From Candidatus Gottesmanbacteria bacterium (GTDB lineage Bacteria; Patescibacteriota; Microgenomatia; JAMCYU01), in NCBI GenBank assembly GCA_043801155.1, contig JAZDMI010000011.1:27439-91438 (forward strand): 64,000 nt of DNA, written 5' to 3'. Under the pieces are notes generated by a model. That model was given only the letters and a program-made list of their open reading frames with translations. It made no database searches and was not told the DNA's origin. How positions within the stretch are numbered: the first letter of the stretch is position 1; every line of letters begins with the position of its first letter. Position numbers and translations under genes: made by a program. Positions 19,573 through 21,997 of this stretch are shown piece after piece.

Positions 19573-19983
19573 ATGTGGAATTGTCCGAAGTGTGGAAGGA
19601 TTTTTGCCAAAGCCAACCAGCCTCATAGTTGTAAAAGTATTCCTCTGGAAAAACATTTCGAGAACAAAGACAAAGCCAAACAACTTTTTGATTATTTAAT
19701 TGCGAAAATAAATAAAGAAATCGGTAAATGCCAGATAATTTCCCTTCCTTGCTGTATTCACCTCTATGGTAAATATGATTTTCTGGCCGTTCTTCCCAAA
19801 AAAGATTCAATAGAAATACGGCTATCCCTAGATAAAATACTTGATAGTCCTCGATTAAAACAAAGTGTTCCATTGTCTGCTAATATCTATAAAAATTGTA
19901 TTTATATATATAGTATAGAAGAAATTGACACCGAGCTTCTCAAATGGTTAGACGAAGCCTATCATTTAAAAGATAAAAATTAA
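19573..19983 (+). CDS. Hypothetical protein with an N-terminal zinc-ribbon motif (MWNCPKCGRIF...HSC)
   Basis: 136 aa with a CPxCG...HSC pattern. The rest has no recognisable motif. Confidence 0.5.
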   Translation: MWNCPKCGRIFAKANQPHSCKSIPLEKHFENKDKAKQLFDYLIAKINKEIGKCQIISLPCCIHLYGKYDFLAVLPKKDSIEIRLSLDKILDSPRLKQSVPLSANIYKNCIYIYSIEEIDTELLKWLDEAYHLKDKN

Positions 19984-19984
19984 A

Positions 19985-20215
19985 GTGAAAAAAATATTAT
20001 TATTCATTAAAATTATTTTCTTAGCCTTTTTTTCCATAATGTGGTTTGTGCTTATCCAGGGGGAGTATGAAATGGTTACCAAACCGGAACTGCAAAAAGA
20101 TTTTCCAGGTATTAAAGGCGTAAACGCGGTTTACTTTCTTGGTTTTATTTTATTATTATTAAGTATAATTATTGTTTATTTATTAAATTCAATTTCTAAA
20201 TCTAAAAAACGATAA
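19985..20215 (+). CDS. Small membrane protein (76 aa, GTG start)
   Basis: Two predicted TM helices. Immediately follows the previous gene. Confidence 0.35.
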   Translation: MKKILLFIKIIFLAFFSIMWFVLIQGEYEMVTKPELQKDFPGIKGVNAVYFLGFILLLLSIIIVYLLNSISKSKKR

Positions 20216-20223
20216 AGAGATAT

Positions 20224-20706
20224 CTAATACTGTTTTATGCCTCTAGATTGAGATGAAAAAAAGACATCGCGTAGCAAGAGAATTCCTCCAATACCAACCG
20301 ATACAAGAGATAACCAAAAAATAGCAATAGAGGTAACTACAAGCGTCCATTGCCAGCCATTGGTTTCTATTTCTCCCGAAGCAAGACCAGTCACGATAGC
20401 AATCAGCTGACCAATAACTAAGGATAATACTGCGATACAAATACTCCAACCTATTAGTCTTTTCCTTAATTTTTTCCGGAATGATACCCAAAATAAAAGC
20501 CCGGCGCCAATCAGTTCCACCGGAAAGATCTCAGCGGGCATAAGATAATCAAACCGGAATATGCCCTCAATTGCAACTGAAACAAAAGAAAAAACAATCG
20601 GTAAGAGAAGAGGAAACCAAACCATCAATGTTCCGACAATTATTAAAATGTTTATTAACATATCTTGATTGTATAAATAATGTAAATATAAAGTCAAAAT
20701 AACCAT
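20224..20706 (-). CDS. Hypothetical integral membrane protein (160 aa, 4-5 TM)
   Basis: Hydrophobic throughout, with no recognisable motif. Confidence 0.45.
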   Translation of the reverse strand: MVILTLYLHYLYNQDMLINILIIVGTLMVWFPLLLPIVFSFVSVAIEGIFRFDYLMPAEIFPVELIGAGLLFWVSFRKKLRKRLIGWSICIAVLSLVIGQLIAIVTGLASGEIETNGWQWTLVVTSIAIFWLSLVSVGIGGILLLRDVFFSSQSRGIKQY

Positions 20707-20785
20707 ATTTTTTCAATTAAAGTTAATCCGCTAGGTTTTTTAGATTAATTACAAGGACCTATAGTTTCTATTTATCCTCTATTTT

Positions 20786-21511
20786 TTGTATAATAAGCAG
20801 TATATGACCCAAGAAACTGAAAATATTAGTATTTTGGACTTGACACAAAAAAAGTTGACAAATCCTACACTAAGTTTTGATGTATGGGAGAAACTAAGTC
20901 CGGAAATGCAATTATATTCTTATGGCCGTGAAAAAGTAATTTTTCCGGATTCACCGGAAAAACTTGCCATACAAGAAAAGCTAACAGCATTTATTACTAA
21001 AGCAACCGAATCTGGATTGATTCAAAAAGTAGCATCTCGATACTCACCTAAGTCTGGAACCGTTGATTTGATTGCTCTTGCAGACATGAGAGTCGATGGT
21101 CCAGGACATAGTCGAAAATATGGATGGAAAATTCTTCTTGACACTCCCCATGCAATAATATTAAAAGACAAATCTTGTCCATATAATCCTTTAGCCGTTG
21201 TGGGATTAAAAATCACTGTTAATGAGATTACTATCGGACAAATTCAGGGTATAAAAAAAGCCGACAATGAGTTAAGACAAGTTGGCCGATGGGAAAAGAT
21301 ATTAGTTGGTTTAACCGAAGAGGCAGCCAAAGAAATGATTATTCCAAGAGTTCGAATTATTACTGCAAAAGATAATGGTTGGATTTATTATAATATTGTA
21401 AACGGATTTATGGATGAAAACAGCGCCAAATTAAGATATGACATTACGGCCAAAAGAATGGGTTATAAATGGGATGGTATTCATAGTTGGGTAAAAGAAT
21501 TAAATAACTAA
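20786..21511 (+). CDS. Hypothetical protein (241 aa)
   Basis: Clean ORF with no motif I can assign. Confidence 0.5.
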   Translation: MYNKQYMTQETENISILDLTQKKLTNPTLSFDVWEKLSPEMQLYSYGREKVIFPDSPEKLAIQEKLTAFITKATESGLIQKVASRYSPKSGTVDLIALADMRVDGPGHSRKYGWKILLDTPHAIILKDKSCPYNPLAVVGLKITVNEITIGQIQGIKKADNELRQVGRWEKILVGLTEEAAKEMIIPRVRIITAKDNGWIYYNIVNGFMDENSAKLRYDITAKRMGYKWDGIHSWVKELNN

Positions 21512-21598
21512 TAAAGAAGCTAATTAGCTTCTTTCTGAATGAATTTTTGACTTTTACCTTATATCAGGCTTAAAATCAAGATAGAAAGAAGGTGTAAT

Positions 21599-21796
21599 AT
21601 GGCTTATACAGGATTAGAAAGAATTATCGAAATAGCTACTAGTCCATTAAATTTCGTAGTTAGAGAACTTAATAAAGTCAATATGACTACTGAAGAAATG
21701 ATTACAACACAGAAAAATGCGGACATGATGAAACGTTTTAATGTGGGTAATGAAGTTGAGATTGAGGATAAACAAACTGACGCTAGGAACGCTTAA
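21599..21796 (+). CDS. Small hypothetical protein (65 aa)
   Basis: Its stop abuts the ATG of the next small gene (taaATG), suggesting a two-gene operon. Confidence 0.35.
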   Translation: MAYTGLERIIEIATSPLNFVVRELNKVNMTTEEMITTQKNADMMKRFNVGNEVEIEDKQTDARNA

Positions 21797-21997
21797 ATGA
21801 GTAACGAATCTGAATTTACCTGCATAAAATGCGGGAGTACAAATTTCCAAAGAGTCGAAACAAAAGTTACCATCGGTGAGCAAACGATATCAGGCTTAGT
21901 AGACATGCAGTGTCGAGATTGTGGAGAACTGCGGGCTATGCCTAATCTTTTAGGTAGAATAGAAGCATTGACAGAGAATAAGACTACGGTCAAATAA
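21797..21997 (+). CDS. Small zinc-ribbon protein (66 aa; CIKCGS...CRDCGE)
   Basis: Two CxxCG pairs about 35 aa apart. Followed by a terminator. Confidence 0.45.
   Translation: MSNESEFTCIKCGSTNFQRVETKVTIGEQTISGLVDMQCRDCGELRAMPNLLGRIEALTENKTTVK

Follow-up and report, generated by a model that had tools for sequence, protein, structure and literature searches.

Six small genes between ftsZ and ileS of Candidatus Gottesmanbacteria: a probable patch of lineage-restricted accessory genes

Gene layout and transcription signals

Six open reading frames (ORFs) lie at positions 19573–21997 of the window, the 64-kb stretch of DNA analyzed here, which comes from a metagenome-assembled genome of Candidatus Gottesmanbacteria (CPR, Microgenomates), in the interval between ftsZ and ileS. 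The plus strand encodes products of 136 aa (p136, 19573–19983) and 76 aa (p76, 19985–20215), then a 241-aa ORF (20786–21511), and finally products of 65 aa (p65, 21599–21796) and 66 aa (p66, 21797–21997). The original prediction had placed all six ORFs correctly; what it lacked is that the 160-aa ORF (p160, 20224–20706) is on the minus strand, opposite to the other five. Two of its further observations were borne out on reading the sequence. The TAA of p65 is followed immediately by the ATG of p66, so that the two genes abut, and cysteine motifs are present in p136 (MWNCPKCG...HSC) and p66 (CIKC...CRDC). The 241-aa ORF begins at a TTG that sits at a TATAAT box. Its true start is most likely the ATG at 20804, giving a protein of 235 aa (p235, 20804–21511, plus strand), because the NCBI annotation (V1858_01020) and the sole close homologue are both 235 aa long. 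The NCBI proteins identical to p235, p65, and p66 are V1858_01020, V1858_01025, and V1858_01030, respectively.

Coding status was assessed from codon usage, with log-odds for which 24 long genes of the window served as the training set. The score was positive for all six ORFs, each of which beat the five other frames, and they therefore look like real genes of native composition. The p65 score was the highest of the six; p66 scored 0.165, where the training genes average 0.29. Composition and codon usage of the cluster are indistinguishable from those of the remaining window. A scan of positions 16000–23000 against Rfam returned a single chance-level match, which argues against a hidden RNA gene.

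The six genes form about four transcription units on both strands. They are not a single operon, since the p235 gene has its own hairpin at 21513–21534. A TAAAAT box (19561–19566, plus strand) stands 6 nt before the p136 ATG, a leaderless-style start, and p76 is presumably co-transcribed, as its GTG start lies 1 nt past the p136 stop. On the minus strand, the best promoter-like site (10/12; 20662–20697) reads TTGACTTT-N16-TACAAT-CAAGAT and is directly followed by an ATG. This leaderless arrangement suggests that p160 probably starts at Met16 (position 20661; 145 aa), directly behind the promoter. The monocistronic p235 gene has the TATAAT as its −10 box (20789–20794, plus strand). Its 3′ hairpin has a perfect 9-bp stem, AAAGAAGCU-AAUU-AGCUUCUUU (−9.5 kcal/mol, z −2.7), and is likely a terminator or a transcript-end structure. 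The p65–p66 pair has a promoter at 21547–21582 (plus strand), TTGACTTT-N16-TAAAAT-CAAGAT; the 15-nt leader behind it contains an AAGGTG Shine-Dalgarno sequence, and AGGAA lies 8 nt upstream of the p66 start. Shine-Dalgarno-like sequences are rare in this window, and p65 and p66 have one each. The terminator that had been predicted after the 66-aa gene is present as a hairpin followed by U6 (22006–22042, plus strand; −10.3 kcal/mol, z = −4.3), and 0 of 200 shuffled sequences folded equally well.

The p160 and p65 promoters are twins. They form the arms of an inverted repeat (I1) and flank the p235 gene in inverted orientation. The pattern that they share, TTGACTTT-N16-TAHAATCAAGAT, occurs twice in the 64 kb (0 expected), at p160 and at p65–p66. 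This points to co-regulation of p160 with p65–p66. The units appear functionally independent, but perhaps not all of them are, because a pair of promoters that has no counterpart elsewhere in the window connects p160 to p65–p66.

Upstream, the cluster adjoins two modules bounded by copies of the ftsZ 3′ end. A repeat search of the window found the copies, which encode …IPAFLRQGR and the stop codon, at 17191–17232, 18277–18318, and 19498–19539. The cluster begins 34 nt past the last of these; no copy was found between 19540 and ileS, so it has no distal repeat of this kind. The duplication of the ftsZ tail was seen in 0 of 80 related loci. A 17-nt repeat (19560–19576 and 22119–22135) that brackets the cluster was considered as an insertion scar and rejected, because both copies correspond to the TG-n-TAAAAT-N6-ATG leaderless promoter/start architecture, which is common in the window.

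The small soluble and membrane proteins

p136, p76, and p160 were compared with family libraries, PDB sequences, phages, plasmids, IMG/VR, and the related loci that had been fetched. The earlier statement that none of the six products matches a recognized family fails for p136, as it does for p235 (below). p136 is a soluble, basic protein with two parts: an N-terminal C-x2-C...H-x-C zinc knuckle (residues 1–25) and a DUF5655 domain (residues 26–132). The match to Pfam PF18899 scores 29.0 bits against a gathering cut-off of 24 (E = 1.2e-6), and profile positions 2–108 of 109 align to residues 26–132, which covers essentially the full domain. Among DUF5655 proteins p136 is a minimal version, in which the 25-residue Cys/His knuckle alone precedes the domain. 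We know of no established function for this family. A DUF5655 protein has been listed among the strain-specific genes, including a BREX system, of one Methanobrevibacter smithii strain (PMC12487256). p136 itself had no match in PADLOC, in phages or plasmids (tblastn), or in IMG/VR.

Hydropathy indicates two transmembrane segments in p76 and about four in p160. Matches of both proteins in Pfam and NCBIfam were all sub-threshold, and p160 had no relative in IMG/VR. When p136, p160, p65, and p66 were compared with PDB sequences, only compositional CxxC or transmembrane matches were obtained, and p65 gave none. PHROGs returned nothing for the proteins of the cluster. The sole match in PADLOC-DB v2, between the zinc-ribbon stretch of p66 and PDC-M26B (E = 0.009, 12 bits), is insignificant.

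p65 is acidic (pI 4.8) and soluble, and lacks cysteine. p66 is also acidic (pI 5.3) and carries a CxxC...CxxC zinc-ribbon pattern with the two CxxC about 26 residues apart. Each of the two found just itself among 5.8 billion protein clusters, and both are absent from phages and plasmids (tblastn), IMG/VR, and 81 related loci. p65 had no Pfam, NCBIfam, PHROG, or PADLOC match at E ≤ 1. p66 resembles small zinc-ribbon families (FmdB/CxxC_CxxC_SSSS, DUF7838, the ECs_2282 family, and HVO_2753-like proteins) in its two CxxC knuckles and in size. The family matches among these (DUF7838, ECs_2282, and FmdB) are generic and sub-threshold, with E values of 1e-3 to 1e-2 and 17–19 bits against cut-offs of 28–37. 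With scores below the cut-offs and no homologues, the ribbon is best regarded as a structural motif and not as a sign of family membership. A derivation of p66 from the neighboring IleRS, whose zinc segment it resembles, was also considered; the alignment (24.6 bits, 35% gaps) consists essentially of two CxxCG knuckles, a generic motif, and the idea was rejected.

The p65–p66 arrangement of two small adjacent genes with one promoter and one terminator is that of a co-transcribed type II toxin-antitoxin (TA) pair. Unlike a typical pair of this type, both proteins are acidic. Neither showed homology to toxin or antitoxin families in Pfam, NCBIfam, PADLOC, or PHROGs, and as singletons that are missing from the related loci, phages, and IMG/VR they do not form a pair that is conserved and mobile across genomes.

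p235, a putative GNAT-fold acyltransferase

Although p235 had no match in Pfam or NCBIfam at E ≤ 1, its predicted structure has the GNAT α/β core. The AF2 model is confident (pLDDT 85.9, pTM 0.80), with residues 50–235 mostly above 90, and Foldseek assigned it to GNAT with a probability of 1.0. A separate earlier model, built from just two sequences, gave the same answer. The β-sheet/helix core spans residues ∼85–235. A family profile retrieved 325 representatives at an E-value cut-off of 1e-3, of which 41 remained at 1e-10; counted as clusters at 50% identity, the family has 325 members or more. The family has escaped existing models: 56 members had no Pfam match, and none matched a GNAT model at E ≤ 0.01; the family profile found no GNAT protein among PDB sequences. 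One member, from Portnoybacteria, is labeled "N-acetyltransferase domain-containing protein" in UniRef. Only two members have a source name, and both sources belong to the CPR (Gottesmanbacteria and Portnoybacteria). IMG/VR held no relative of the family. On the strength of the predicted fold, p235 is a putative acyl-CoA N-acyltransferase, previously unannotated, of a family that has no Pfam model.

Conservation was examined in 151 family representatives. Q146 is present in 100%, Q148 in 99%, and G149 in 91% of these, and position 152 is glycine in 75%; the protein of the window has lysine there. GNAT motif A, Q/R-x-x-G-x-G/A, lies at the β4-α3 junction and binds the pyrophosphate of acyl-CoA. 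The p235-family motif, Q-I-Q-G-[VI]-[KR]-G, is a near-match to it with shifted spacing. Residues D113, Q146, Q148, W163, Y212, and D213 are invariant in the family, and the invariant polar residues are retained in p235. The resulting signature is D...QxQG...WE...YDxTAxRxGF. Its Q-x-x-G at β4/α3 and A-x-R-x-G-F on α4 are reminiscent of GNAT motifs A and B. We infer that p235 would transfer an acyl group, most likely acetyl, from acyl-CoA to an amine of a protein or small molecule, and that its active and cofactor sites would combine Q146-x-Q148-G149 at the β4/α3 junction with Y212-D213-x-T-A-x-R-x-G-F on α4. The use of acyl-CoA is suggested by the fold; the family departs from the standard form of motif A, and the acetyltransferase models of Pfam do not match it.

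Among solved structures the closest is NatD/Naa40 (PDB 4u9w), an enzyme that acetylates the N termini of histones H4 and H2A. It aligns to p235 over 130–135 residues, compared with ∼105–120 for typical GNAT matches, at a sequence identity of only about 10%. The longer alignment suggests that the two share a helical extension before the core (helices 51–80 of the p235 model).

The surroundings of the gene differ from those of known GNAT toxins. In the AtaT-AtaR, TacT-TacA, KacT-KacA, and ItaT-ItaR systems an RHH/DUF1778 antitoxin is encoded upstream of the GNAT, whereas p235 has none. It lacks a same-strand upstream gene altogether; its neighbors are the divergent membrane protein p160 and the separately promoted p65–p66 pair. 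AtaT ranked only 46th among the structural matches. At seven metagenome loci, members of the p235 family are single genes with no shared partner and no neighbor of the DUF1778/RHH type; genes of the SecDF, GlmS, PurD, DnaX, and MraZ/RsmH type (assigned by eye from ORF starts) lie next to them. The sole close homologue, on contig L001, adjoins a DUF433/DUF5615 pair; the notion that this contig represents another ftsZ/ileS junction was rejected on inspection.

A variable ftsZ–ileS slot and the nature of the cluster

The junction was compared across 80 related Microgenomates ileS loci, the closest with 56–65% IleRS identity; none of the GTDB species representatives exceeded 85%. In 58 of the loci ftsZ lies upstream in the same orientation. 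The two genes are directly adjacent (gap ≤340 bp) in 35 of the 58 loci. In the remaining 23 the gap is 458–8666 bp, and it is 4900 bp in the window. The cargo of the relatives is diverse, including an MvaI/BcnI restriction endonuclease with an N6_N4 methyltransferase, HicA, DUF433 with DUF5615, Fic, an IS1595 transposase, YcaO with a nitroreductase, and NUDIX. Searches of the 80 loci with tblastn, phmmer, and the family profile recovered none of the six genes, and neither the LapA nor the GH26 gene of the window. The slot resembles the islands next to tRNA and tmRNA genes in having a fixed, conserved junction whose cargo (restriction-modification, TA, and insertion sequence genes) differs from relative to relative. 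The cluster differs from island hot spots in having no flanking repeat, integrase, or transposase.

The absence of all six genes from the related loci, together with the variability of the slot, bears out their proposed accessory status. Conserved presence in the core genome of the relatives had been named in advance as the refuting observation, and the outcome was the opposite. A single TA-like, defense, or regulatory module, as had also been proposed, is not supported: the genes fall into about four units, divided between the two strands and with no significant PADLOC match, and relatives of p235 stand alone among housekeeping genes without a conserved partner. We consider it probable that the six genes are a patch of lineage-restricted accessory genes in the variable ftsZ–ileS slot and not one system. 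About four units would then share the slot. p136–p76 would supply a DUF5655 protein with a zinc knuckle and a peptide with two transmembrane segments. p160 would be a membrane protein made leaderless from its own promoter on the opposite strand, and p235 a GNAT-fold enzyme that stands alone, served by a −10 box and a hairpin of its own. p65–p66, expressed from the twin of the p160 promoter, would be translationally coupled small acidic orphans, the second a four-Cys zinc ribbon. Given the TA and restriction-modification cargo at the site in relatives, some of the orphans may have a defense-type role.

That reading has to be set against several others. Some or all of the genes could belong to a single new module with a role in conflict or regulation. 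In one such case p160 and p65/p66 would be co-regulated through their twin promoters, and the GNAT protein might or might not take part as effector or toxin. The confinement of the twin promoter to these two sites, the abutting p65/p66 genes with their rare Shine-Dalgarno-like sequences, the restriction-modification, HicA, DUF433/DUF5615, and Fic genes in the slot of relatives, the DUF433/DUF5615 pair beside the closest p235 homologue, and the DUF5655 protein listed with BREX genes would all fit such a module. We nevertheless think it unlikely, as no significant match to a toxin, antitoxin, or defense family emerged from PADLOC, Pfam, or NCBIfam, the genes are divided between the strands, p235 has its own signals and solitary relatives, and p65 and p66 are both acidic, without homologues and without conservation as a pair. 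The specific version in which p160, a helical acidic p65, and the zinc ribbon p66 constitute a lineage-private conflict or stress module, with an inserted CPR-specific GNAT enzyme of non-canonical active-site signature as the effector, strikes us as very unlikely.

Instead of two functional genes, p65 and p66 could be the halves of one gene of ∼131 codons that a nonsense mutation to TAA has interrupted, or else nonfunctional ORFs of young or spurious origin. The two ORFs are in the same frame with a single stop codon between them, both are singletons missing from phages and IMG/VR, and the coding score of p66 is modest. Yet exactly these two genes are enclosed by a strong promoter and a good terminator, and each ATG is preceded by a Shine-Dalgarno sequence; no other ORF of the cluster scores as high for coding as p65, both score better than their other frames and were called by PGAP, and the CxxC...CxxC spacing of p66 is intact and typical of a zinc ribbon. 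Disruption or spurious origin thus seems quite unlikely. The cluster might also be an ancestral, lineage-specific core, the original neighbor of ftsZ, displaced by two later tail-bounded insertions. Its native composition and codon usage would agree with this, as would the lack of mobility genes and flanking repeats and its start just past the ftsZ-tail copy that has diverged furthest and is presumably the oldest, with no such copy flanking the cluster itself. Against this stand its absence from 80 of 80 related loci, one of them (L045) labeled Gottesmanbacteria, direct ftsZ–ileS adjacency as the majority state, and a p235 homologue in a different context. Ancestral residence is, in our view, very unlikely.

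As a patch of accessory genes the cluster itself is ordinary content, a mosaic of unrelated strain-private genes rather than a hidden system. Two by-products of the analysis reach further. A GNAT-fold family of considerable size, for which Pfam has no model, is now defined, with a confident structural model and a sharp signature, and could be curated and tested. The ftsZ–ileS junction emerges as a recurrent cargo slot of Microgenomates, with restriction-modification, TA, insertion sequence, and RiPP-type genes, and provides a convenient anchor for surveying the accessory and defense content of these poorly annotated genomes.

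The ftsZ–ileS junction

The cluster of six small ORFs (19573–21997) is flanked upstream by ftsA, ftsZ (16090–17232), a NUDIX gene and a LapA-domain membrane protein gene (minus strand) and a GH26 glycosidase gene, and downstream by ileS (22132–25116). Relatives were sought by scanning 185,579 species-representative genomes with the IleRS of the window, which gave 80 Microgenomates loci (56–65% identity). ftsZ lies upstream of ileS on the same strand in 58 of these, with a gap of at most 340 bp in 35 and of 458–8666 bp in 23; the gap in the window is 4900 bp (interval 17233–22131). 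Across Microgenomates, the ftsZ|ileS junction is a slot whose cargo varies recurrently. The wide gaps contain genes unrelated to the cluster, among them an MvaI/BcnI restriction enzyme with an N6_N4 methylase (locus L030), HicA and an IS1595-type transposase (L013), Fic (L003), a DUF433 + DUF5615 pair in another Gottesmanbacteria genome (L045, 3436–3991), YcaO with a nitroreductase, NUDIX, and others. The six cluster proteins, LapA and GH26 have no tblastn (E<1e-3) or phmmer (E<1) match in the 80 loci. Core presence in all relatives, which would have argued against the original prediction that the cluster is accessory, is thus not seen for any of the six genes, and the designation is supported.

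Within the L013 gap (5118–7376), genes for a YcaO cyclodehydratase and a nitroreductase-family protein and a 79-aa ORF lie consecutively, the product of the last having a Cys/Gly/Ser-rich C terminus (…CGGSCGCAGGECGGECAGSCSGGECSSTCGSSTC…); the trio resembles a RiPP cluster of the azole type (TOMM-like), in a CPR genome. Many records (L004, L008, L013–L015, L017, L022, L024 and others) are titled “uncultured Gammaproteobacteria bacterium” and one “Weeksellaceae”. Their IleRS is of the Microgenomates type, about 60% identical to that of the window, and many show ftsA–ftsZ–ileS synteny; these taxonomic labels are probably wrong.

The 3′-terminal 42 nt of ftsZ (17191–17232) recur at 18277–18318 with 81% identity, encoding the same peptide through synonymous changes, and a third, more diverged copy is present at 19498–19539. 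The second and third copies have in common a segment of ~38 nt just upstream of each (18217–18254 and 19473–19510). The copies delimit the NUDIX+LapA and GH26 segments, which look as if they had been inserted one after the other at the 3′ end of ftsZ; neither retains an integrase. None of the 80 relatives showed a duplication of this kind. The cluster had been described as continuous with these modules. It does adjoin them, starting 34 nt past the last ftsZ-tail copy, but its far end carries no copy and it is not itself a module of this kind.

Coding content and transcription units

ORF calls confirmed all six ORFs, named here by residue count: p136 (19573–19983, plus strand), p76 (19985–20215, plus; GTG start one base past the p136 stop), p160 (20224–20706), a “241-aa” ORF (20786–21511, plus), p65 (21599–21796, plus) and p66 (21797–21997, plus). 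p160 is on the minus strand, a point absent from the original prediction. The cysteine motifs (MWNCPKCG...HSC at the N terminus of p136, CIKC...CRDC in p66) and the taaATG junction of p65 and p66 were read from the sequence as described, and the terminator 3′ of p66 is a hairpin (22006–22042; −10.3 kcal/mol, z −4.3 versus shuffles) followed by U6. When codon log-odds were trained on 24 long window genes, each of the six ORFs scored above zero in its own frame and below zero in all five alternatives, and the antisense ORFs of the region scored below their own best alternative frame. This makes the six plausible genes of native composition. Cluster GC (0.32–0.35) is similar to that of the remaining window. 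The “241-aa” ORF should probably be read from ATG 20804, giving 235 residues (p235). The identical NCBI protein and the sole close homologue both have this length, and the TTG start of the longer version sits inside a TATAAT box. NCBI proteins identical to p235, p65 and p66 (V1858_01020, 01025 and 01030) are annotated as hypothetical.

In p136, a C-x2-C...H-x-C knuckle (residues 1–25) precedes a full-length DUF5655 domain (residues 26–132; 29.0 bits versus a Pfam threshold of 24). p76 and p160 are small membrane proteins with two and about four hydrophobic segments, respectively, and their family-library matches are all sub-threshold. Both p65 (pI 4.8) and p66 (pI 5.3) are acidic; each matches only itself in a search of 5.8 billion clusters, and phages, IMG/VR and the PDB yielded nothing except compositional CxxC matches. 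Generic zinc-ribbon families match p66 only below threshold. p66 (21815–21937) is weakly similar to the zinc segment of the neighboring IleRS (23638–23811), likewise CxxC...CxxC, with knuckles CIKCG/CQKCG and CRDCGEL/CRKCGEL (24.6 bits, 16/60 identical, 35% gaps), which probably reflects generic zinc-ribbon similarity.

The two best sigma-70-like sites of the region (10/12 matches; 20697–20668, minus, and 21547–21576, plus) jointly form its longest inverted repeat, I1. The composite TTGACTTT-N16-TAHAATCAAGAT occurs twice in 64 kb (0 expected), both times at these promoters, which read TTGACTTT-N16-TA[C/A]AATCAAGAT (20662–20697, minus; 21547–21582, plus) and flank the p235 gene in inverted orientation. 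The minus-strand copy runs right up to the ATG of Met16, suggesting that p160 is leaderless and 145 aa long. On the plus strand, a 15-nt leader with AAGGTG lies between the promoter and p65, the first gene of a predicted p65–p66 unit. p160 may be co-regulated with p65–p66, or the p235 gene may have been inserted into a divergent promoter pair. Between the twin promoters, p235 has its own TATAAT (20789–20794) and a perfect 9-bp hairpin (21513–21534). p136 has TAAAAT 6 nt ahead of its ATG, leaderless-style as in ileS and many other first genes. From the layout of promoters, hairpins and strands, the cluster comprises about four units: p136–p76, p160 on the opposite strand, p235, and p65–p66. For most first genes throughout the window, a TATAAT-like box stops 5–7 nt short of the ATG and there is no Shine-Dalgarno sequence (for example, 9839, 12848, 17766 on the minus strand, 18387, 19573, 22132 and 26200); an SD-like motif is found at only about 8/56 starts, p65 and p66 among them. 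This pattern suggests that initiation in this genome is predominantly leaderless or SD-independent.

The p235 family

No family match to p235 was obtained initially, and a word-indexed search of 5.8 billion clusters returned only the protein itself and one that is 52% identical. Searching 1.84 billion representatives exhaustively with an HMMER profile gave 325 proteins at E≤1e-3 (41 at E≤1e-10), typically about 200 aa long and sharing the C-terminal ~120 residues. None of 56 family members matches a Pfam acetyltransferase model. The AlphaFold2 model (56-sequence input; pLDDT 85.9, pTM 0.80; residues 50–235 mostly >90) shows a GNAT fold. Across 151 representatives, D113, Q146, Q148, G149, W163, E164, Y212, D213, T215, A216, R218 and G220 are 82–100% conserved and N191 is conserved in 73%; all are retained in p235, and the pattern, as read from the alignment, is characteristic of an enzyme. 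In GNATs the CoA pyrophosphate is bound at the beta4/alpha3 junction, where the canonical motif is Q/R-x-x-G-x-G/A. The QxQG of p235 is located at this junction, although it differs from the canonical motif. A relative from Portnoybacteria is labeled “N-acetyltransferase domain-containing protein” in UniRef.

The family member stands alone at seven metagenome loci, beside genes that resemble SecDF, GlmS, PurD, DnaX and MraZ/RsmH types (by eye, from ORF starts), with no partner gene common to the seven. IMG/VR contains no p235 relatives. We conclude that p235 is a stand-alone acyltransferase of GNAT fold; the model shows the fold, and the use of acyl-CoA and the substrate are presumed. The closest homologue, on the 4.6-kb contig L001, comes immediately after a DUF433/DUF5615 pair (556–1975). 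L001 is not an ftsZ/ileS junction, and the pair in the L045 gap is unrelated to that of L001.

One module or a patchwork

The original prediction proposed that the cluster might be one uncharacterised toxin-antitoxin-like, defense or regulatory module. The same slot in relatives does hold toxin-antitoxin and restriction-modification cargo, the twin promoters are shared by p160 and p65–p66, and, anecdotally, a DUF5655 gene is listed among BREX genes specific to one archaeal strain (PMC12487256). The arrangement in about four units on both strands argues against a single module; PADLOC gave one insignificant zinc-ribbon match, and PHROGs gave nothing for the cluster proteins. p65 and p66 resemble a type II toxin-antitoxin system only in being two small adjacent genes. 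GNAT toxin systems are defined by an adjacent RHH/DUF1778 antitoxin; a reading of p235 as a GNAT toxin fails on this point, as no such gene adjoins it here or in the seven other family loci. The proposal of one module is not supported, and we assign it a small probability.

The cluster is a mosaic: strain-private genes, ordinary in content, that occupy a variable slot. The sole function that can be assigned within it is that of p235, a putative enzyme of GNAT fold whose family is uncurated within a known superfamily, its two named members both being from CPR bacteria.
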